64,000 nt of DNA from Parcubacteria group bacterium GW2011_GWA2_47_21. Its GTDB lineage: Bacteria > Patescibacteriota > Minisyncoccia > Phycocordibacterales > DSPV01. The notes beneath the pieces were generated by a model. It did not search any database. It had not been told where the DNA came from and worked only from the letters and a program-made list of their open reading frames with translations. Within the stretch, counting starts at the first letter, position 1. Every line of letters begins with the position of its first letter. The position numbers and the translations under genes are program-made. This document shows, piece after piece, positions 3,547 to 46,320 of the stretch. The stretch is from the NCBI GenBank assembly GCA_001000545.1, contig LCOC01000005.1, forward strand, positions 10,013-74,012. Direction: 5' to 3'.

Positions 3547-6500
3547 CTATTGGGCATCCGCGCTCAAACCTTTGTCCGCGTTTCGACCTTCTTCCGGAAG
3601 CCGGAGCAATTCCACATTGAGCGACAGCCCTTTCAAGTTGTTCAAAAGCACGCTGAAAGAAGCGGGCGCGTTGGAGTCCTTAATGCGTTCGCCTTTGACG
3701 ATGGCGTCAAACGCCGCCGAGCGCCCCAAGATATCGTCGGATTTAATGGTGAGCATTTCCCGCAAAGTGTACGCGGCGCCGTGGCCCAAGAGAGCCCAGA
3801 CTTCCATTTCCCCGAATCGCTGGCCGCCGCCTTGAGCCTTGCCGCCCAAGGGCTGTTGGGTAATAAGCGAATACGGACCGATGGAGCGCATGTGGATTTT
3901 GTCTTCCACCATATGATGAAGTTTCAAAATATACATATAACCGACGGCGATATTTTGGCTGAATGATTCGCCGGTCCGGCCGTCATAGAGTTTCATCTTG
4001 CCGCTCCGGTCAAAACCGGCCTTTACCAATTCGTCTTTCACTTCCTCGTCGCTCGCGCCGGTAAAGGGGGGCACAATGGCCTGGTAACCCTGGGTGTGGG
4101 CGGCCAGGCCCAAATGTAATTCCAGAATTTGCCCCAAATTCATGCGCGACGGTACTCCGAGCGGAGTCAAAATAATGTCCACCGGCGTGCCGTCGGGCAG
4201 GTAAGGCATATCGGCTTCGGGCAGCACGCGGGAAATGACGCCTTTGTTGCCGTGCCGGCCAGCCAATTTGTCGCCCACCGAGACATTCCGGAGTTCCGCC
4301 ACTTCAATGTGAATTCGCTTCAAAATTCCGCTATCCAACTTATCGCCCCGTTCGCGGGAGAAAACTTTCACGCCGATTATCCGGCCCCTCTTGCCGTTCT
4401 CCATCCGCTTGGAGGTGTCTTTGACATCACGGGCTTTCTCGCCGAAAAGCGAGCGGAGCAATCGTTCCTCCGGAGTGAGCTGGGTTTCGCCTTTGGGCGT
4501 AATTTTCCCTACCAGAATATCACCCGGCCTAACTTCCGCCCCAACCCGGACAATGCCGTCCTCGTCAAGATTTTTGAGTTTGACTTCGCCGACATTCGGA
4601 ATATCGTGGGTCGTCACTTCGGGACCAAGCTTCGTGTCTCTGACATTCACCACAAATTCTTCAATGTGAATGGAAGTAAATTTACTGTCCTTGACCAACC
4701 GCTCGGAAATGATAATGGCGTCTTCGTAATTGAAACCGCTCCAAGACATAAAAGCGACCAGCACATTGTGGCCCAAAGCCATTTCCCCACCGACGCTTGA
4801 AGAGGTGTCGGCCAAAACCGTTCCTTTCTTTACTTTATCGCCAGCTTTGACAATCGGCCTCTGGTGGAAGACGGTAAAGCCGTTAGTTCGGGAAAAATTG
4901 ACAAGCTTGTATTCCCTGTCCTTGCTTTTGGAATTCTTGACGATAATTTTCTTGGCGTCAGAATAAGAGACCGTCCCTTCCTCAAGCGCGTTGACGACTC
5001 GGCCGGTGTCTTTAGCCGCCTGTTTTTCTATGCCCGTCGCAACCAAAGGCGCTTCCGGCACGATAGACGGCGTGGCTTGCTTTTGCATGTTTGAACCCAT
5101 AAGCGCTCTGTTGGCGTCGTCATGATTTAAAAATGGAATCATGGAGGTGGCGATGGAAAACGCTTGGTTGGTGGCGACATCTATAAAATCAACGCTTTCC
5201 TTTTTCGCCAAACCCGGCTTGCCACCAAGCCGGACTTCCGCCACTTCTTCCAGAAGCTCGCCTTTTTCGTTGTAGAGGGTGGCGGCGTGAGCGATATTGT
5301 AGTTTTCTTCTTCGTAAGCGTTTAGGTAGACGATTTCTTTGGTAATCATTCCGTTCTTCACTTTGGCATAAGGCGTCTCAATCATGCCGAAATCGTTTAT
5401 CCTGGCGTAGGTGGCCAATCTAAGAATCAAGCCGATGTTCGGGCCTTCCGGAGTGTGGATCGGACAAACCCGTCCGTAATGCGACGGGTGAACGTCCCGG
5501 ACTTCAAAACCGGCCCGCTCCCTGGTCAAACCGCCGGGGCCCAAAGCCGAAAAAGTCCGAAGGTGCTCCAACTCGGCCAAGATATTTTCTTGGGCCATAA
5601 ATTGGGAAAGCTGGTTGGTGGTGAAAAATTCTTTGATGCGGGCTTGCAGGGGCTTCGGAGAAATAAACTGGACCGGTGTCGTAACATCGGATTCAATCGT
5701 AGACATCCGGTCTTGGATATTCCGCTTTATCTGGGTCATACCAACGCGGATTTTTTGCTGGAGCAGTTCTCCCACATAGCGGACCCGCCGGCTTCCCAAG
5801 TGGTCTATATCGTCCTCCATCGCGCCGGCCGTGGTGTTTAATTTTATGATGTTGCCGACGATGTGAATCAAGTCGGTCAAGGTGATTTTCCTCTGCTCCA
5901 TGTCTTTTTCAGAAAGCCCCAAACCGAAGCGTTTGTTGAATTTGAAACGGCCGACTTTGGAAATATCATAACGCTCGGAGCTGAACAACCCATTGATGAA
6001 TTCCTTGGCATTATCTATGGAGCGCATATCGCCGTCGCGGAGCCGTTTGTGAATTTCAAGGTAGGATTCGGCAACGGTCTTGGCGTGGTCTTTTTCAAAA
6101 GACGCGTCAAGGAACGCCGGCGCTTCTTTAATGTCCGCAAAATGCTTTCTTATGATTTCGTCATTCTCGGCGCCAAACACCCGCAAGAGAGAGGTGATGG
6201 AGAATTTTCTCTGCCGGTCAATCCTAACGTAAATAGCACCGTCCGGCTCGGCATCTATCTCAACCCAAACGCCTCTGGAAGGAATAATCTTCGCGCCGAA
6301 ATACTGTTTGCCTTTGAATTCCGTCTTGGTAAAAAAGACGCCGAAAGAACGGGCCAGTTGCGGGACAATCACCCGCTCCACTCCGGAAATAATGAAAGTG
6401 CCGTGAGAGGTCATCATCGGCAAATCGGCGAGAAAAATTTCCTGCTCTTTGCTCACGCCCAATGTCTTATTTTTCAAACGAACGGTTACTTTAAGCGAAG

Positions 6501-7620: not shown

Positions 7621-8064
7621 ATGATAAGAACAAAAGTACTGTTAGTGTCTGGAAGGAGAGGCGGCAAAACCAAGGAGGAGATTAAAACCTTAATGAAAGA
7701 TGAGTTAGAGCAAGCGGGGCACGAAGTGCTCATTGCTCAAAATGTTGACGATGCGTTATACCTTGTCTACCACGAAGAAAACGTGTCGGTAATGATAACT
7801 GAGGCGGACATCACTGGTTATCAAGACGGCGTGGAGTTAATCAGGGCGGTCCATGATATAAACCACGGAACGACTAAGACCGTTCTCACCAGCGGCCGGT
7901 ATGTGGAAGAGTTAATTGAACTCGCCCACCTCGCTGGTGCCACCGCTTACTGGTCAAGACCGTCCAGCATGAAGAGTTTGGTCCACCTCATTGCCCAAAT
8001 TCTTCAAGACCAAGGAGAAATGGCGGCTGAAGCAATGGTCGCGACCGCGCCGGCAATGGCGTAA
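7621..8064 (+). CDS. CheY-like receiver-domain protein, atypical (stand-alone, degenerate acidic pocket)
   Basis: 147 aa; receiver-like spacing of conserved T (TKTVLTSG) and K-equivalent region (GATAYWSRP, K replaced by R); putative phospho-Asp in ITEAD; no output domain. Confidence 0.5.
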   Translation: MIRTKVLLVSGRRGGKTKEEIKTLMKDELEQAGHEVLIAQNVDDALYLVYHEENVSVMITEADITGYQDGVELIRAVHDINHGTTKTVLTSGRYVEELIELAHLAGATAYWSRPSSMKSLVHLIAQILQDQGEMAAEAMVATAPAMA

Positions 8065-8093: not shown

Positions 8094-8126
8094 CAGGCCC
8101 GTCCGAAATGGACGGCCTGTTTTTTA
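8094..8126 (+). terminator. Rho-independent terminator after receiver gene
   Basis: CAGGCCCGTCC-gaaat-GGACGGCCTG followed by TTTTTT. Confidence 0.75.
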
Positions 8127-8220
8127 TGCTTCACCATTTTTTTACTACTTTTTTATGATTCATCTTTATAAATTTTATAAATTCTGGTTAGCAAAATCTC
8201 TTTAATTGAAGCCCCGCCAA

Positions 8221-8303
8221 CGCGTCAACCTGCCAGGTTGACGCGCAAAAATGGCTTTGTTTAGACGTATAATCTAAAGTGGTCAACCTGCCAGGTTGAC
8301 GCG
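8221..8303 (+). promoter_or_regulatory. Operator-like pair of palindromes (core GTCAACCTGCCAGGTTGAC) bracketing a TATAAT -10 element upstream of the SPFH operon
   Basis: CGCGTCAACCTGCCAGGTTGACGCG at 8221-8245 and GTCAACCTGCCAGGTTGACGCG at 8282-8303, centres ~59 bp apart with TATAAT at 8268-8273 between them; a third copy of the core occurs at 27902-27928. Confidence 0.5.
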
Positions 8304-8457
8304 TTGGGATGGCACGCAAGGACGGGAGGATAACACCCTCTGCTGTGACCATTTTTTCGACAAAACGCGACATTGACACAGTGAACATAATGTGATAGCT
8401 TATCCGACAGATTTCGTCAAAGTGGCCTTTGACAAAAGAAGAAACTGAAACACCATC

Positions 8458-9684
8458 ATGGAGTGGATTGTTCTATGGCTGGCTGAAAGGGATTTGTTCT
8501 TAACTACAGTAAAAGAGGCGCAAGCGAAGATCGTCGTGCGTTATGATGGGATTGACCGTTGTATCATGGCTTACAAGGACCATGTCTTGGCGCAAAAGGG
8601 CCAGACCTACAAAATGCCAATCAAAAAACTGAAACCGACTGATCCGAAGGAGTTGGAAGATGGGGCGGTGGATAAAAAGGTCGGAGAGGAGTACGAGACA
8701 TGGGTTAAAAACGCCGACGGCGCACTACAACAAAAAAAGTGCAAGTTGGACGAATGGGATGTGCTGCCGGCAGATTGGTTTCAAATAGACGCAAACGGAA
8801 ATACAACTCCCCCTTTGGAAGATGGGGGATGGCAAAAAAGATTCGGAGGGGGACTCCGCTGGCTCGGCTTGCCAGGCGTCAATACCATCTACAGATACAA
8901 CTTTATCTGGACAAGTCTAGAACAAAAAAAGGAAGAATCGTCTGGCAAAATCAAGACGGTCTTTGTCACCAAAGAATTCACGGGGGAGGCAGAAAAACGG
9001 GGCGGTAATGGTCCCATAGATTATGTTCCACTGTTTATTGACACCTATGTGGCCCAAGTGGAAGAAGCCGACAGCCGTGACGGGGTACCGTTTAATGTTC
9101 AGTACTTGATAACAGCTAGAGTGGTAAATCCGTACAAAGCTACACAAAAAGTCCATCGCTGGTTGGAGACCGTTCAAAACCAAATCGGTGGTAAAATTGT
9201 GGACTTTGTGCGCGACCACTCCTACACAGACCTATTAGATCAATCAAAAACGGATCCCAGTAAGCCGTCTGATTCCAAGATTGCGTTAGAATTAAACACT
9301 CTTCTATCGGACGAAAGACATTTCGATGAATTTGAGGAAAATCTGGGCGTTAAAGTGGACAAAATTCAAATCTGGGACATCAGTCCATCAAATCCAAAGT
9401 TCATTGAAACAGTCACGAAGAGGTTCACGGCCGAGCAGGAAGGTAAAGCCAATGTGGTTACAGCCACTTACTACCAACAACAACGCAAACTGGAGGCAAC
9501 CGCCGACGAGGATTACAACAGGAGGGTCTACGGCGCCATCAAGGAAGCCGGCGGCATGACGGTGGAAACGGCAAAACAACTCAAAGAAATCAAAGGTGTG
9601 TTGTCGCTTGGCGGCGAAGCTGCCAATATCATAGTCCAGCAACCACAACCAGAGAAAGAAAAGAAAGTGGAGGAAAAGAAATGA
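8458..9684 (+). CDS. SPFH/band-7 (stomatin/flotillin-like) domain protein with ~190-aa N-terminal extension
   Basis: Blocks alignable to SPFH consensus: RFGGGLRWLGLPGVNTIYRYNF (G..r.l.PG motif), LFIDTYVAQVEEADSRDGVPFNVQYLITARVVNP, IGGKIVDFVRDHSYTDLL, VKVDKIQIWDISPS..., C-terminal coiled-coil/lysine-glutamate tail. Confidence 0.55.
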   Translation: MEWIVLWLAERDLFLTTVKEAQAKIVVRYDGIDRCIMAYKDHVLAQKGQTYKMPIKKLKPTDPKELEDGAVDKKVGEEYETWVKNADGALQQKKCKLDEWDVLPADWFQIDANGNTTPPLEDGGWQKRFGGGLRWLGLPGVNTIYRYNFIWTSLEQKKEESSGKIKTVFVTKEFTGEAEKRGGNGPIDYVPLFIDTYVAQVEEADSRDGVPFNVQYLITARVVNPYKATQKVHRWLETVQNQIGGKIVDFVRDHSYTDLLDQSKTDPSKPSDSKIALELNTLLSDERHFDEFEENLGVKVDKIQIWDISPSNPKFIETVTKRFTAEQEGKANVVTATYYQQQRKLEATADEDYNRRVYGAIKEAGGMTVETAKQLKEIKGVLSLGGEAANIIVQQPQPEKEKKVEEKK

Positions 9685-11060: not shown

Positions 11061-12551
11061 GTGAAAATCGTGCTTTATGTCGTTGTTTTTATCGGGGGCG
11101 CGGTCGTTATGGTTTTAGAGTTGGTGGCGACCCGTATTATCGCGCCCTATCTCGGCGCGTCATCAATCGTCTGGACGAGTTTAATCGGCGTCATTCTGGC
11201 GGGCCTAAGCGTCGGCTACTTTGTAGGCGGAAAAATCGCCGATAAGAAAGCGACTTACAAAGGACTCGCGCTTATTTTCATAATTGCCGGACTTTTGGTG
11301 ATTCTCATTCTCTACTTCAAGCCCATACTCGGCTTAATCGCAAAAATAGAAAACCTGCAAGCCGGAGCATTGCTCGCCTCTTTAATCCTCTTTACGCCGG
11401 CGACAATCGCTTTGGGCACCATTGCTCCTTACGCCGTCCGTCTCCGGATTGAGTCGCTCCAAAATTCCGGAAATATCGTAGGGAAACTCTACGCTCTTTC
11501 AACGGTCGGAAGCATTGTCGGCACCTTCCTCGGCGGGTTTTTCCTTATCTCGTATTTCGGGAGCACTAAAATTCTAGAATACTTAAGCGCCACTCTGATT
11601 TTATCCGGGGTCTTCGTATATGTGGCAGATACCAGAAAATCAACCGGCTTAATTGCCCTGCCTTTGCTCCCCATAATACTGACAGCAATCATTCCCCCTT
11701 ATGGCTTAATCCTGGAAAAAAACGCCGAACTTCTCACCGATGTGGACAGCGAATACAGCCGGCTTTGGGTCTACGACAGCAGAGATAAAAAAACCAATCG
11801 GCCCGCCCGCTACCTTACGACAAGCGTTGAACTCACCCAATCGGGCATGTATCTCGATAACCCCGAAGAACTCCTCTTGGATTATGCCAAACTGCTTGAC
11901 CTGGCGGAAATGTTCAACCCGAAACTTAACCGCGGGCTTTTAATCGGCGCCGGGGCGTATTCATACCCAAAATACTTTTTGAAAAAGTATCCGGAAGCCA
12001 CCCTGGACGCGGTAGAAATAGATGAAAAAATGACAATGTTAGCCAGACAATATTTCTTTCTGAAAGATAACCCGCGGCTTGCCATATACCACCAAGACGG
12101 GAGGACATTTTTAAGTCGAATTGATAATAAATACGACGCGATTTTCATTGATGCTTTCCTCTCGCCTCTTTCCATTCCCTATCACCTTACAACGGTTGAA
12201 ATTATAAAAATGGCAGAGAGCAAGCTCGCCACAGAGGGAGTGGTGATTGTAAATATCATCGGCGCGCTTCAAGGCCACCGAAGCGATTTTTTCACAGCGG
12301 AATACGGCACTTACAAAACAGTGTTTCCTAATGTATACGTTTTTCGCGCGCAACCGGAGCGAAAACCCGATGAATTGCAAAACATTATTCTCGTGGCCGC
12401 AAAATCAAATAACACGCTCGTTATTGACAATAAGCTTAGGAAAAGCGATTACTTAAAAAATTGGTGGCCAGAAAAAGTAACGACAAATTTGCCCATCTTA
12501 ACCGACGACTTCGCTCCGGTAGAAAAATATGTGACAAAATCAATGTTCTGA
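11061..12551 (+). CDS. Fused polytopic membrane domain + spermidine-synthase-like (polyamine aminopropyltransferase fold) protein
   Basis: N-terminal ~8 predicted TM helices (LVATRIIAPYLGASSIVWTSLIGVILAGLSVGYFVGGKIADK) followed by class I MTase-like/spermidine synthase core (GLLIGAGAYSYPKYF...AVEIDEKM...DAIFIDAF); apparent GTG start. Confidence 0.65.
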   Translation: MKIVLYVVVFIGGAVVMVLELVATRIIAPYLGASSIVWTSLIGVILAGLSVGYFVGGKIADKKATYKGLALIFIIAGLLVILILYFKPILGLIAKIENLQAGALLASLILFTPATIALGTIAPYAVRLRIESLQNSGNIVGKLYALSTVGSIVGTFLGGFFLISYFGSTKILEYLSATLILSGVFVYVADTRKSTGLIALPLLPIILTAIIPPYGLILEKNAELLTDVDSEYSRLWVYDSRDKKTNRPARYLTTSVELTQSGMYLDNPEELLLDYAKLLDLAEMFNPKLNRGLLIGAGAYSYPKYFLKKYPEATLDAVEIDEKMTMLARQYFFLKDNPRLAIYHQDGRTFLSRIDNKYDAIFIDAFLSPLSIPYHLTTVEIIKMAESKLATEGVVIVNIIGALQGHRSDFFTAEYGTYKTVFPNVYVFRAQPERKPDELQNIILVAAKSNNTLVIDNKLRKSDYLKNWWPEKVTTNLPILTDDFAPVEKYVTKSMF

Positions 12552-12620
12552 AAGACGGATACGAGAGATTTTTAATTCCCGAGTGATTTAACGGTTTCCC
12601 CCATCAAATTCATAATCCCG
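12462..12620 (+). repeat. Direct repeat copy A (~158 bp): intact 3' end of the membrane/spermidine-synthase-like gene plus downstream junction
   Basis: TGGTGGCCAGAAAAAGTAACGACAAATTTGCCCATCTTAACCGACGACTTCGCTCCGGTAGAAAAATATGTGACAAAATCAATGTTCTGAAAGACGGATACGAGAGATTTTTAATTCCCGAGTGATTTAACGGTTTCCCCCATCAAATTCATAATCCC; recurs at 13924-13992 and 14782-14939. Confidence 0.9.
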
Positions 12621-12782
12621 AAAGGCTTTGTTGAATAATTCATTTTATGGCTCTAAATAAGAGCATTTTGGGCAGTCAAAAAATGGGGCAAAATAGAGAT
12701 ACGGCTTAAAATAAGGATATTTTGGTTGAATTATTCAACAACGCCATCCCGAAAACCGAAAACATTATCTTGCCGTAAAAAA

Positions 12783-13835: not shown

Positions 13836-13923
13836 AAATTAACAACTATTCGCGTCAAGATGGCACAATTATACTGCCGTGTCTGACATAGAAGCAAATT
13901 CCGCGCAGAAGAATTCCTGACGG

Positions 13924-13992
13924 AAAATTTGCCCATCTTAACCGACGACTTCGCTCCGGTAGAAAAATATGTGACAAAATCAATGTTCTGAA
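13924..13992 (+). repeat. Direct repeat copy B (68-bp core of the junction repeat)
   Basis: AAATTTGCCCATCTTAACCGACGACTTCGCTCCGGTAGAAAAATATGTGACAAAATCAATGTTCTGAA identical to the core of copy A. Confidence 0.9.
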
Positions 13993-14047
13993 GAACAGAT
14001 GCGGATAATAATGGGATATGTCCTTAAAATTTTTCGTATTTATACGG

Positions 14048-14781: not shown

Positions 14782-14939
14782 TGGTGGCCAGAAAAAGTAA
14801 CGACAAATTTGCCCATCTTAACCGACGACTTCGCTCCGGTAGAAAAATATGCGACAAAATCAATGTTCTGAAAGACGGATACGAGAGATTTTTAATTCCC
14901 GAGTGATTTAACGGTTTCTCCTATCAAGTTCATAATCCC
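14782..14939 (+). repeat. Direct repeat copy C (~158 bp, 4 mismatches vs copy A), abutting first pilin-like gene
   Basis: Same 158-bp sequence as 12462-12620 with GTG->GCG and three substitutions in the distal part; its minus strand encodes the C-terminal tail (IMNLIGETVKSLGN*) of ORF 14892-15083. Confidence 0.9.
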
Positions 14940-15083
14940 AAACGCCGAGAACATTATGAACATTCCGATGATACCGAAGATAATCGCTAATCCGCCCTCT
15001 TTCCTCTTCGCCGCGTCATCACCTTTGGCTACATAACGAAAGACCCCCCAAATAAATACCAGAAAAGCCAGTGACAGAAGCAA
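14892..15083 (-). CDS. VirB2/TrbC-like small membrane protein paralog, N-terminally truncated (possible gene fragment)
   Basis: Two hydrophobic helices around loop VFRYVAKGDDAAKRKEGG; lacks signal peptide and overlaps 3' end of next paralog by 65 nt. Confidence 0.35.
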   Translation of the reverse strand: MLLSLAFLVFIWGVFRYVAKGDDAAKRKEGGLAIIFGIIGMFIMFSAFGIMNLIGETVKSLGN

Positions 15084-26182: not shown

Positions 26183-26507
26183 ACGACTATTATATAACAG
26201 GAATGCCGCGAATGAAAAACAAAGTGTCGCAAATCAACTGCCCAGAAGAGCGTGCTCTAAGTTGATTCACAAATATAAGCTGGCGTAACCTGTGAAAATC
26301 AGTTCTTCATAAATTGTGAGGAACTGATTTTCACAGAATCATAAAAACCCAAACTCACCCTCATGTTTCCCAAGGAAAAAATCTTTTGAAATCTTTTGCG
26401 AAACTCCGAGCGAAGAAGTTCGCCAAACGCGTAAGTCCAGAAATAGACAAAATGCGCTTTTCCCTTATACTACTCCTATTAACAACGCTGAAGCCGGTTA
26501 ACCCCGT

Positions 26508-27740
26508 TTGAGGCCGAAACGACTGCCAAACGGACACTACGCTTCGCAAAAACAAATGACCATAAAAGAGGATGTTAAGAAAAATAATAAAGTCGGCGAA
26601 AATGATTCAATAGACATTGGAAAAGAGGAAAATTTAGAAAAAAACGAGAGCGGTTTAGCCCCCAAAAAAGACGGGCTGATGACGAAACTTATCGGCAGTT
26701 CGGCTAATCCCCCGCAAGCCGGCGATTTGGTGGAAGGTCAAGTAAGCGCCGTGGAAAAAGCCGCTGTCTACGTGGATTTGCCGCCGTTCGGGGCCGGCAT
26801 TATTTATGGCCGGGAATACCAAAACGCCCGCGATTTGGTCAAAAAAATCCAAATCGGCGACAAGATTACGGCAAAGGTGGTAGACGCCGGCAATGAAAAC
26901 GGTTACATAGAATTATCTCTCCGCGAAGCCCGCCAAGCCCTTGTCTGGAACGAGGCCGAAGTGGCCATTAAAGAGCAGAAGGTGTTTGAATTGCCGATTA
27001 AAGACGCCAATAAAGGCGGCTTAATTATTGAGTGGCAAGGCATAGTCGGTTTCCTGCCCGCTTCCCAGCTTAAAAGCGAACACTACCCGAGAGTTGAGGG
27101 CGGCGACAAAGACAAGATTTTGGACGAACTCAAGAAGTTGGTCGGCACGCGCATGTCAGTCGCCATCATCACTGCGCTCCCCAAAGAGGGTAAATTGATT
27201 TTCTCCGAAAAGACATCCGAGGAGAAAGAGAAAGGCAAGATGGTGGAGAAATACAGCGTCGGCGACGAGTTGGCCGGCGTGGTAACCGGCATTGTTGACT
27301 TCGGCGTCTTCATCAAACTTGAAGACAATCTGGAGGGCTTGGTTCATATTTCAGAAATTGATTGGGGTTTGGTGGAAGACCCGCGAAAAATGTGCAAAGT
27401 CGGCGACCATGTGAAAGTAAAAGTCATTGAAGTCAAAGACGGCAAAGTGTCTCTTTCAATCAAGGCCTTAAAACCGAACCCGTGGATTGACGCGGCGACC
27501 AAATATAAAAAAGGCGACACGGTCAAGGGCATCATCATTAAATACAACAAGCACGGCGCGCTCGCTTCAATAGAAGAGGGAGTGGCCGGCTTGGTCCACA
27601 TCTCGGAATTCGGCGGAAGCGAGGAGAAACTCCGCGCGGCGCTTGAACTGGGCAAAGGATACGATTTCAAAATCGCCCTTTTTGACGCCAAAGAAATGAA
27701 GATGGCGCTCTCCTTTGCGGAGGCGAGTAAGAAGCAGTGA
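26508..27740 (+). CDS. rpsA: S1 RNA-binding domain protein (ribosomal protein S1-like, 4-5 S1 repeats)
   Basis: Repeated S1 motifs: GDLVEGQVSAVEKAAVYVDL, GDKITAKVVD, GDELAGVVTGIVDFGVFIKLEDNLEGLVHISEI, GDHVKVKVIEV, GDTVKGIIIKYNKHGALASIEEGVAGLVHISEF. Confidence 0.75.
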   Translation: MRPKRLPNGHYASQKQMTIKEDVKKNNKVGENDSIDIGKEENLEKNESGLAPKKDGLMTKLIGSSANPPQAGDLVEGQVSAVEKAAVYVDLPPFGAGIIYGREYQNARDLVKKIQIGDKITAKVVDAGNENGYIELSLREARQALVWNEAEVAIKEQKVFELPIKDANKGGLIIEWQGIVGFLPASQLKSEHYPRVEGGDKDKILDELKKLVGTRMSVAIITALPKEGKLIFSEKTSEEKEKGKMVEKYSVGDELAGVVTGIVDFGVFIKLEDNLEGLVHISEIDWGLVEDPRKMCKVGDHVKVKVIEVKDGKVSLSIKALKPNPWIDAATKYKKGDTVKGIIIKYNKHGALASIEEGVAGLVHISEFGGSEEKLRAALELGKGYDFKIALFDAKEMKMALSFAEASKKQ

Positions 27741-27901: not shown

Positions 27902-27928
27902 CCGTGTCAACCTGCCAGGTTGACACGG
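27902..27928. repeat. Third copy of GTCAACCTGCCAGGTTGAC palindrome (13-bp-stem hairpin) at convergent gene junction rpsA/pth
   Basis: CCGTGTCAACCTG-C-CAGGTTGACACGG. Confidence 0.85.
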
Positions 27929-28047
27929 AAATATGGCTTAACAAAAGCTTGGGCGCATCAGATTCTCCCAAACCGATTTGGGAGGAGCTGATGCTCCCAA
28001 AATGCTCCCGAAGACGGTGTTCCCGGAAGCTGAAAAATTAATGGGAG

Positions 28048-28641
28048 TTATGAAATCTTATTGAACTCCCCCATCGCCATCTCCCGCCCTAAAGTAATAA
28101 TCATTTGAAGCGCTTCATTCGTTTTCTTGGAAAGTTTCTTAAGAGCGGCAAGTTCGGCGGGTTTAAATTTGCCTAAAATGTGTTCAATAACGGCTTTTTC
28201 TCCGGCCGGCTTTTTTACTTTGCCTTTGGCGCCGGCGGACGAGATGCCGACCCGCACGCGGACGAAACCGTCGGTCTTGAGCATTTTGGAAATTGAGGCG
28301 ACGCCGCGATGTCCGCCGGCGCTTTTGTTGAAGGAAATTTTAAACCGGCCAAGCGGCAAATCTAAGTCATCGTGAACCACGACGAGCGCTTCGGCTTTTT
28401 TAGGCGAAATAATGAGTCCCTTAACGGCCTCGCCTGATTTATTCATAAAAGTCCCGGGCAGAAGAAGCAAGATTTTTTCTTTTCCGACTTTGCCTTCCGA
28501 AGTCAAGGACTTCTTTTTTTTATTTTCCTGCCAATCCGGAAAACCGGCGTAACGCCTGAAATTCTCAACCAAAAATGCCCCGGTATTATGACGAGTGTTT
28601 TCGTATTCGGCTCCCGGATTGCCCAAACCGACAATAATCAT
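28048..28641 (-). CDS. pth: Peptidyl-tRNA hydrolase
   Basis: MIIVGLGNPGAEYENTRHNTGAFLVE N-terminal signature; 197 aa. Confidence 0.9.
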   Translation of the reverse strand: MIIVGLGNPGAEYENTRHNTGAFLVENFRRYAGFPDWQENKKKKSLTSEGKVGKEKILLLLPGTFMNKSGEAVKGLIISPKKAEALVVVHDDLDLPLGRFKISFNKSAGGHRGVASISKMLKTDGFVRVRVGISSAGAKGKVKKPAGEKAVIEHILGKFKPAELAALKKLSKKTNEALQMIITLGREMAMGEFNKIS

Positions 28642-36959: not shown

Positions 36960-37030
36960 GGGAGGAAAAGGATTTGCTTTGCCTCGGCTCTTTTTCCAAA
37001 ACCACGGGGATTTGGTATCCGCCGCGCCGG
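36960..37030. repeat. Inverted repeat, left copy (71 bp) flanking UDG-like/radical SAM cassette
   Basis: GGGAGGAAAAGGATTTGCTTTGCCTCGGCTCTTTTTCCAAAACCACGGGGATTTGGTATCCGCCGCGCCGG; exact reverse complement at 39184-39254. Confidence 0.9.
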
Positions 37031-39183: not shown

Positions 39184-39254
39184 CCGGCGCGGCGGATACC
39201 AAATCCCCGTGGTTTTGGAAAAAGAGCCGAGGCAAAGCAAATCCTTTTCCTCCC
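39184..39254. repeat. Inverted repeat, right copy (71 bp)
   Basis: Reverse complement of 36960-37030; the two copies enclose 37031-39183. Confidence 0.9.
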
Positions 39255-39326
39255 TTTTGAAAATAGGTGCGAGCTTGGTACAATAGACACACCATAAGGA
39301 GATTAGGAGGAATTTTTCCTATTTCA

Positions 39327-39355
39327 CAATGGGCTTCCGCAATGGAAGCCCATTG
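39327..39355. repeat. Hairpin repeat element CAATGGGCTTCC-GCAAT-GGAAGCCCATTG, copy 1
   Basis: 31-bp identity (CACAATGGGCTTCCGCAATGGAAGCCCATTG) with 46290-46320. Confidence 0.9.
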
Positions 39356-46063: not shown

Positions 46064-46291
46064 ATGCCTAATTACTTTCTCTACGCTCGCAAAAGCACCG
46101 ATGTTGAAGACAAGCAAGTCCGGTCTATTGACGACCAACTTACTGTCTTGCGAGCGTTGGCGAAAGAGCAAAATTTCTCCATCACCCGAGAGTTCATAAA
46201 GAGGCAATCCGCGAAAATGCCCGGACACCCCGTCTTTGATGAAATGCTCGCCCTGATTGAGAAAGGCGAAGCGCGCGGCGGTCCACAAACA
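46064..46291 (+). pseudogene. Serine recombinase (resolvase/invertase-type) N-terminal catalytic-domain fragment, interrupted after ~75 aa by the hairpin repeat
   Basis: MPNYFLYARKSTDVEDKQVRSIDDQLTVLRALAKEQNFSITREFIKRQSAKMPGHPVFDEMLALIEKGEA matches Y-x-R-x-S-T...Q...L serine recombinase N-terminus; similarity ends where palindrome 46290-46320 begins. Confidence 0.6.
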
Positions 46292-46320
46292 CAATGGGCT
46301 TCCGCAATGGAAGCCCATTG
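46292..46320. repeat. Hairpin repeat element, copy 2
   Basis: Identical 31-bp core to 39325-39355. Confidence 0.9.

Follow-up and report, generated by a model that had tools for sequence, protein, structure and literature searches.

Introduction

Almost all of the REP/RAYT systems characterised so far come from Proteobacteria, where the sequence of the REP is lineage-specific and the number of copies can reach hundreds. In IS608 and ISDra2, the hairpin is recognised on single-stranded DNA, and IS608 has distinct LE and RE hairpins. The REP/BIME-REPIN and RAYT (TnpA-REP) systems of Enterobacteria and Pseudomonas have been described in several studies (Nunvar 2010; Bertels & Rainey 2011 PMC3116915; Ton-Hoang 2012; Messing 2012 PMC3479197; Bertels 2017 PMC5581495; Quentin 2018 PMC6006769). 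Their defining arrangement is a single-copy HUH/Tyr gene that is bracketed by a dispersed extragenic hairpin (PMC5581495, PMC6006769). Canonical REPs have a conserved 5' GT[AG]G at the foot of the hairpin (PMC6006769). The TnpAY1 subclass 2.6 and class 3 are accompanied by atypical REP-like structures of weaker secondary structure, which lack the GT[AG]G consensus and are also found at other places in the host genome; that survey does not mention CPR taxa (PMC6006769). A literature search returned no paper containing the sequence described here and none linking RAYT or REPIN to Patescibacteria.

The DNA studied here is a stretch of 64,000 nucleotides (64 kb), which is called the window throughout. 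An initial annotation of the window had described a dispersed palindrome and preferred to read it as the dual operators of a dimeric HTH repressor, with a REP-like element of dual role as the alternative. We conclude, at a probability of about 0.8, that the palindromes in the window are REP-type hairpins recognised by single-copy Y1 HUH (RAYT-like) transposases of a family found throughout the CPR. This reading is chosen because a single-copy HUH/Tyr gene bracketed by an extragenically scattered hairpin is the defining arrangement of REP/RAYT systems.

Results

Three copies of the palindrome in the window

The window has a GC content of 46.7% and looks like CPR/Patescibacteria DNA. Exact look-ups of its proteins revealed near-identical strains (99.8-99.99%) in groundwater metagenomes of the Rifle type. 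Data sets with relatives of the window are PRJNA268031 (runs SRR1658462 and SRR1658344), ENA ERZ27254745 and JGI 3300025308. The features of the two palindrome loci are the following.

7621-8064: receiver-only response-regulator gene, no DNA-binding domain, upstream of the doublet
8099-8125: canonical terminator of the receiver-only gene, upstream of the doublet
8210-8264, + strand: palindrome copy 1, full unit, AAGCC-N7-CGC, core GTCAACCTGCCAGGTTGAC at 8224-8242, GCG-CAAAA-ATGGCTTTGTTTAG; D6 repeat
8217-8307, no strand: REPIN-like composite hairpin (the doublet), 26-nt arms 8217-8242 and 8282-8307, 25/26 complementary (inverted repeat I4)
8279-8315, + strand: palindrome copy 2, core at 8282-8300, then GCGTTGG-G-ATGGCAC; by its flank the inverted partner of copy 1
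26508-27740, + strand: rpsA, convergent with pth
27902-27939, + strand: palindrome copy 3, CCGT, core at 27906-27924, ACGG-AAAT-ATGGCTT; 13-bp stem
28048-28641, - strand: pth, convergent with rpsA

The 19-nt core is present in three exact copies in the whole window, where 0.01 copies are expected by chance from dinucleotide-preserving shuffles. This confirms the dispersed palindrome, with three copies, of the initial annotation. No further copy was found in the window at up to three mismatches, nor at up to five. The symmetry of the core is 9+1+9, and the unpaired centre base is a C on the + strand in all three copies. The repeat unit is larger than the 19-mer, about 37 nt, and each copy has an ATGGC(TT) motif 6-8 nt 3' of the core (repeat family D6).

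The copies differ in their individual folds. Copy 1 alone forms a 12-bp stem at 8221-8245 (-14.4 kcal/mol), and its unit is also found, flank and ATGGCTTT tail included, in the metagenome contigs L103/L106 and others. Copy 2 alone has a stem of only 9 bp. The 13-bp-stem hairpin described earlier for copy 3 (27902-27928) is formally correct, and folding gives 12 bp with a 3-nt loop at -13.9 kcal/mol. The earlier gene labels hold as well: copy 3 lies between convergent rpsA (an S1-domain protein) and pth, in an intergenic region that contains other hairpins, and the doublet is followed by a Band_7/SPFH gene and the gene for a 404-aa membrane protein.

Searching Rfam with the whole window at gathering thresholds returned tRNAs only, and with both palindrome loci at E<=1 only sub-threshold chance matches to generic hairpin models. 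A CRISPR remnant was rejected, as there is no array, no regular spacing except in the one pair and no additional copies. A DNA-uptake sequence was rejected on the copy number, which is much too low.

Both loci are present in all 99.8%-identical strains, so that no presence/absence polymorphism was seen among them. The doublet is unchanged in six near-identical strain contigs, and two more contigs end at it, as expected because it is a repeat. Copy 3 is present in four near-identical strains, and the sole change is a 4-nt deletion in its loop in L097.

The doublet folds as a single hairpin

The centres of copies 1 and 2 are 58 bp apart, one less than the 59 bp first reported. Copy 1 has CCAACGC as its left flank, and the reverse complement of this sequence, GCGTTGG, follows copy 2 on the right. 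Together with the cores, these flanks make up the 26-nt inverted arms, and therefore the whole doublet folds as one hairpin. The minimum free energy as single-stranded DNA is -34.9 kcal/mol for the + strand and -37.9 kcal/mol for the - strand, with z scores of -7.3 and -8.9, respectively. The inner stem is TTTAGA/TCTAAA, and the apical loop CGTATAA falls inside the region of the TATAAT at 8268-8273, the element noted before between the two copies. Because the apical loop is located there in the fold, the TATAAT is the tip of the composite hairpin.

The pair at 8217-8307 is thus a REPIN-like inverted doublet, and the copy at 27902-27939 is a singlet. In other genomes the copies are mostly singlets; there are a few other close pairs (e.g. 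L101, L111 and L130), taken here without regard to orientation.

Other repeats and strain differences in the window

Several further observations were made in the window. At 8451/8452, 106 nt are absent that are present in all eight near-identical strain contigs (L112-L119). In the relatives, the missing segment supplies the Band_7/SPFH gene with its RBS, ATG and N-terminal transmembrane helix; the gene encodes 436 aa there and is a 408-aa ORF (8458-9684) in the window. Either the window represents a true deletion variant or its assembly is in error here.

A second dispersed palindrome, ACAATGGGCTTCCGCAATGGAAGCCCATTGT, is found at 39325-39355 and 46290-46320, with 13-bp arms and a 5-nt loop. 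Its two copies are 100% identical, and their partly similar flanks form 56-nt inverted arms of 80% complementarity; this palindrome may represent a further repeat family. A 71-nt perfect inverted repeat (36960-37030 and 39184-39254) encloses about 2.15 kb, and strain contig L095 stops there. The non-coding stretch 26272-26438 upstream of rpsA contains a palindrome with 23-nt arms (26290-26336) and is 90-93% identical to parts of the otherwise unrelated metagenome contigs L103 and L106. This stretch may represent either a conserved leader or a further mobile repeat. Direct repeats of 84-161 nt with 93-99% identity lie at 12462-12622, 13920-14003 and 14782-14942. The first overlaps the 3' end of a spermidine-synthase-like gene (11061-12551), and the other two may mark the ends of paralogous genes.

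The same core is found across the CPR

One genome for each of 185,579 species (596 Gb) was scanned for the exact 19-mer. The scan yielded 93 stretches in 49 assemblies, nearly all of them Patescibacteria/CPR, compared with about 2-4 chance matches estimated by simple arithmetic for a palindromic 19-mer in 596 Gb. The CPR hosts include Saccharibacteria, Zambryski-, Nomura-, Giovannoni-, Kaiser- and Taylorbacteria and Paceibacterota, and each assembly has between 1 and 12 exact copies. A handful of singletons in non-CPR phyla are compatible with chance or mis-binning. A phage or plasmid origin was rejected, since the scan of viral contigs gave 0 matches and tblastn against phages was negative.

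The sub-type of the window's clade, AAGCCAT-N5-CGY-core-RCG-N5-ATGGCTT, was found at 14 metagenome loci, many of them from a sample that also holds a relative of the window. At one of these loci, L101, which comes from another sample and another organism than the window, four copies of the hairpin surround an HUH/Tyr gene.

Three copies (L015 2644, L018 5878 and L048 6792) are located on JALVFE010000010, a contig of 128 kb and 33% GC labelled Melioribacteraceae. These have a 5' GTAG directly before the core, without a complementary 3' flank, and this is the sole place with the canonical REP foot. The Melioribacteraceae label may be a binning error.

The outer stem covaries around an invariant tip

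The 3-6 bp adjacent to the core differ between genomes, are common to the copies within a genome and are self-complementary. Examples are aaaccc...gggttt, caaggt...accttg and ccccgt...acgggg. Among 131 distinct copies, the four positions next to the core (1-4) form Watson-Crick pairs in 89, 92, 79 and 74%, respectively, compared with 29-45% in shuffles, and each of the four pair types is represented at positions 1-2. Pairing exceeds that of the shuffles at positions 5-6 as well, and from position 8 onwards it is at background. The mean extension of the stem is 4.4 bp, compared with 0.32 bp in a shifted control. Judged from the sequences, covariation of this kind is the signature of a hairpin and not of a duplex that a repressor would read base by base.

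The tip of the core is identical in every CPR class sampled, also where the associated proteins described below are only about 35-50% identical. The sole variant seen, GTCAACGTGSCACGTTGAC, is a compensated double substitution (C7>G and G13>C) that keeps the palindrome. This variant flanks the RAYT-like genes of L127/L128 (9960, 10634) and L129 (4, 684).

At some sites the left half of the element, consisting of the genome-specific flank and GTCAACCT, is duplicated directly against a full copy, and the break is always in the loop region (L026 147, L055 3772, L062 5192, L068 4288, L120 4386, L098 720 and L023 ~7260). Near cores, 13 such left halves were counted in 14 kb, compared with 37 in 974 kb elsewhere, a density about 24-fold higher; without redundant contigs they amount to about 6-8 independent loci. 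The sequences at these sites hint that breakage happens in the loop.

The copies lie mainly between genes and near stop codons

Genes were called by a simple longest-ORF (heuristic) model to count positions. By this model, 73 copies of the core are intergenic and 22 lie in called ORFs. The intergenic copies are divided into 43 in co-directional, 17 in convergent and 13 in divergent gaps, and those in divergent gaps are mostly the copies flanking the RAYT-like gene. In co-directional gaps outside the RAYT-like loci, the median distance is 25.5 nt to the upstream stop and 84.5 nt to the next start, and half of the copies are at most 16 nt from the stop. In these gaps, 22 copies are nearer the upstream stop and 8 nearer the next start. 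The distribution is thus extragenic and 3'-biased, which is the outcome that the initial annotation had named as arguing against operators.

According to the operator reading, a dimeric HTH repressor would bind the duplex palindrome, the 58-bp pair would bracket the promoter of the SPFH operon, and the other copies would mark members of a regulon. The palindrome is perfect and dyad-symmetric, two copies precede an operon and have a TATAAT in the interval that separates them, and autoregulation of the RAYT-like gene through the copies located about 30-50 nt before it is conceivable in principle. However, a consensus scan did not place the TATAAT of the doublet in any sigma-70-type promoter. The hexamers 16-18 nt upstream of it (cgcaaa, gcaaaa and caaaaa) are unlike TTGACA, and the window contains 38 TATAAT in total. 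A promoter role for the TTGAC of the core or for the TATAAT was rejected in the absence of a hexamer partner at 16-18 nt. A spacing of 58 bp corresponds to 5.5 helical turns, so that the two sites would be on opposite faces of the helix. The adjoining gene, where a candidate regulator had been proposed to be sought, encodes a receiver without a DNA-binding domain.

The genes next to the copies in the 49 assemblies also argue against a regulon. They are unrelated across genomes, and no Band_7 gene was found near any other copy. Outside the RAYT loci, divergent (5'/5') gaps are rare among the copies, most of which come just after stops, and the flanks covary as a stem rather than being conserved as contacts. 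A functional promoter, a nearby regulator and recurring regulon genes, as would be expected of a dual operator, were not found here. We therefore hold the operator reading, which the initial annotation had favoured, to be extremely improbable.

The 3' bias would also suit hairpins whose main action is in the transcript, where they would terminate transcription in both directions or stabilise the 3' part of the mRNA, and that are conserved for that role. E. coli REPs stabilise upstream mRNA, copy 3 has a terminator-like score on the - strand, and the element recurs downstream of rpsA in L087 and L042. A T-rich tail, defined as six or more T among the 9 nt that follow the stem, is present in only 10 of 130 copies, no enrichment over the background of 8.9%, and the copies as a whole do not show the combination of a GC-rich hairpin with a U-tract that characterises an intrinsic terminator. 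A terminator does not need a 19-nt tip that is constant across the CPR classes sampled, and a role in transcripts leaves unexplained why an HUH/Tyr gene is bracketed at both ends. The doublet in the window, moreover, is upstream of a gene and downstream of the separate canonical terminator at 8099-8125. On balance, we consider it unlikely that the hairpins are maintained mainly for a function in the transcript.

The element is found downstream of rpsA in three divergent CPR lineages, namely in the window (27906-27924), in L087 (4391-4409) and in L042 (2542-2560). L087 has the same convergent junction of pth and rpsA, with the hairpin about 170 nt after the rpsA stop. The intergenic DNA around these copies is otherwise unalignable. 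The recurrence suggests either a site preference or very old retention.

A Y1 HUH gene is bracketed by the palindrome in other CPR genomes

At many loci, two cores are 660-710 bp apart, always with an ORF of 217-235 aa between them that starts MIGDIAH... In at least 17 genome loci, one core is located about 30-50 nt upstream of the ATG of this RAYT-like gene and another at or over its stop. Where the downstream core overlaps the stop codon, GTCAACCTGGCAGGTTGA reads ...VNLAG*. A look-up from the protein side, made regardless of the motif, gave six proteins at seven loci, and the core or a near-core (including GTCAACGTGSCACGTTGAC) flanks the gene at all seven. The link between the hairpin and the HUH/Tyr gene in other genomes is thus tight. 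Some loci have additional copies nearby in a 'REPtron' layout (L093, L101 and L130).

Some ORFs run into or through the hairpins. The RAYT-like gene ends inside its 3' hairpin (...VNLAG*) in L020, L067 and L068, and a KsgA-like ORF of L101 (5382-6323) continues through the hairpin at 6115.

The protein family comprises 424 clusters at 90% identity. A profile search found 338 50%-identity representatives at E<=1e-30 and 12,260 at E<=1e-3. Its members are mostly annotated as 'hypothetical', sometimes as 'transposase' and once as 'REP-associated tyrosine transposase'. Without exception, the 40 sequences compared have H75, H77 and Y136, and the invariant HUH motif is PNH(Y/F)HLL. The distance from HUH to the Tyr is about 60 aa in the CPR family, and medians of 58-67 aa have been reported for most TnpAY1 subclasses (PMC6006769). 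The family profile aligns with ISDra2 TnpA at E 1e-3, matching the HUH motif and the catalytic Y132, and with TnpA-REP (4er8) at E 0.14.

The AlphaFold model of the protein (pLDDT 89.6, pTM 0.89) has the predicted fold of a Y1 transposase. When it was compared with the PDB by Foldseek, the top 27 matches were all IS608, ISDra2, IS200, Sulfolobus Y1 transposase or TnpA-REP, and 4er8 had the largest query coverage (TMq 0.44). The CPR protein therefore has the HUH motif and single Tyr at the usual spacing as well as the modelled fold of the superfamily. Its scores against the family models are low: 16.6-23 bits against Pfam Y1_Tnp (PF01797), where the gathering score is 23, and 21.8 bits against NCBIfam REP_Tyr_transpos (NF047646), where the cutoff is 80. 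Among full-length intermediate relatives, 8 of 10 pass Pfam at 25.7-42 bits, one scores 22.6 and one has no match. These relatives match NCBIfam REP_Tyr_transpos at E 1e-6 to 1e-11, none of them at the equivalog cutoff.

No assembly has more than one RAYT-like locus, as counted in the fetched 8-kb blocks of MAGs that are incomplete; within this scope the gene is single-copy and is not carried on plasmids or phages. The order SMC, RAYT, RNase R is common to L020 and L067, and SMC adjoins the gene in L050 too. This shared gene order suggests vertical inheritance.

A Y1 transposase relative flanked by hairpins, named 'transposase' in some databases, could also be an autonomous insertion sequence of the IS200/IS605 type. 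In that case the unit of palindrome, tnpA and palindrome, about 0.7 kb in length, would be mobile, and the solitary palindromes would be its decayed remnants. The numbers are against this, with at most one gene copy per assembly compared with up to 12 palindromes. In the solitary copies the core is still perfect and the stems show the compensation specific to their genome, which implies that the hairpin itself is propagated or selected, and the left and right hairpins have the same sequence. There is no tnpB, there are no phage or viral copies, and the synteny described above suggests vertical inheritance. These observations make an autonomous insertion sequence very unlikely.

Discussion

A proposed mechanism for the hairpin and its enzyme

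The REP/RAYT reading leads to the following proposal, in which the hairpin is probably moved by the RAYT-like enzyme, by homology with known systems. The tip of the element is invariant and consists of 9 bp, GTCAACCTG/CAGGTTGAC, with a single unpaired C or G at the centre; outside this tip are 3-6 genome-specific covarying pairs, with a short ATGGCTT tail in the clade of the window. The enzyme may bind the hairpin in single-stranded DNA, for example at a replication fork, as its homology with IS608/ISDra2 TnpA and E. coli TnpA-REP would predict. The catalytic Tyr would then nick and rejoin the DNA, so that REPs or REP doublets are copied to new extragenic sites in trans. Binding, cleavage and mobilisation of the hairpin by the enzyme are thus what the homology predicts, and any effects on the transcripts of the SPFH operon, rpsA or pth would be incidental.

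The window itself contains no RAYT-like gene (best tblastn E 0.09). Look-ups of the window proteins, the 14 clade-specific metagenome loci and look-ups of the closest homologues, which are from other samples, did not reveal such a gene for the source genome. We infer that the source genome encodes a RAYT-like protein outside the 64 kb. Alternatively, the copies in the window may be an orphan REP population.

More tentatively, the CPR elements may be a distinct REP/RAYT class, ancient in and largely confined to the CPR, with an enzyme that reads the invariant tip instead of a GTAG foot. Such an enzyme might nick in or near the apical loop, like rolling-circle Rep proteins. The idea of nicking in the loop arises because the left-half duplicates break there and because the doublet of the window can also be written as a loop-to-loop insertion. 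We regard this extension as a speculative possibility, less probable than its opposite.

The proposed element would bring REP/RAYT logic into the ultra-small genomes of the CPR, with a constant 19-nt tip and a covarying outer stem. With it, annotators could name a gene family that is mostly 'hypothetical' as well as an intergenic motif that recurs in CPR MAGs, and the repeats explain a class of assembly breaks. Palindromes of this sort should not be taken for operators. If the RAYT-like system is vertically inherited, its persistence in streamlined genomes would imply a domesticated host function. The protein and its hairpin form a compact pair for studying both DNA recognition by HUH enzymes and the persistence of domesticated transposases in streamlined genomes.

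Comparison with known systems

The CPR element appears to work like REP/REPIN-RAYT, and its protein is placed in the Y1 HUH transposase superfamily by its motif and predicted fold. It is ordinary in principle; what is unusual is the pattern of conservation and the host group. As in Enterobacteria and Pseudomonas, short hairpin repeats are spread over the extragenic DNA, and copies of them bracket a single-copy HUH/Tyr gene in a 'REPtron'-like manner (e.g. L093 and L101). Inverted doublets that form one hairpin occur now and then, and some copies are read through by ORFs. The window has a stem-loop palindrome of 20-40 nt that is dispersed, over-represented (though low in copy number compared with classical REPs) and mainly extragenic, as well as one REPIN-like inverted doublet, where most copies in other genomes are singlets. 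Flanking of a RAYT gene in the same genome is seen in other CPR genomes, at the at least 17 loci and the 7/7 loci given above, and not in this window. The alternative offered by the initial annotation, a REP-like element with a dual role, therefore stands in its REP-like part, given the Y1 HUH gene that is flanked in many CPR genomes, whereas a general role as terminator is not borne out by the T-rich tails.

There are clear differences from the canonical REPs. Most copies have no GT[AG]G foot, and the flanks are genome-specific (accc/gggt, aggt/acct and ccgt/acgg), with a GTGG overlapping the core in a few lineages. It is the hairpin tip that is conserved, the same 19-mer in every CPR class sampled, whereas proteobacterial REPs are lineage-specific. 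The outer stem covaries, unlike that of known REPs. The copy number is 1-12, mostly as singlets, compared with tens to hundreds in classical REPs. The CPR protein scores far below the NCBIfam RAYT equivalog cutoff and carries a helical C-terminal extension of about 80 aa.

The TnpA proteins of IS200/IS605 (IS608 and ISDra2) are the best matches of the CPR protein in sequence profile and in predicted fold, with the HUH motif and catalytic Tyr aligned. In contrast to these insertion sequences, the CPR gene is single-copy, its hairpins are also dispersed alone, the hairpins at both ends are identical, and there are neither a tnpB nor multiple IS copies. The REP-like structures of TnpAY1 subclass 2.6 and class 3 share the lack of a GT[AG]G consensus; compared with them by description, the CPR hairpin is strong and has an invariant tip.
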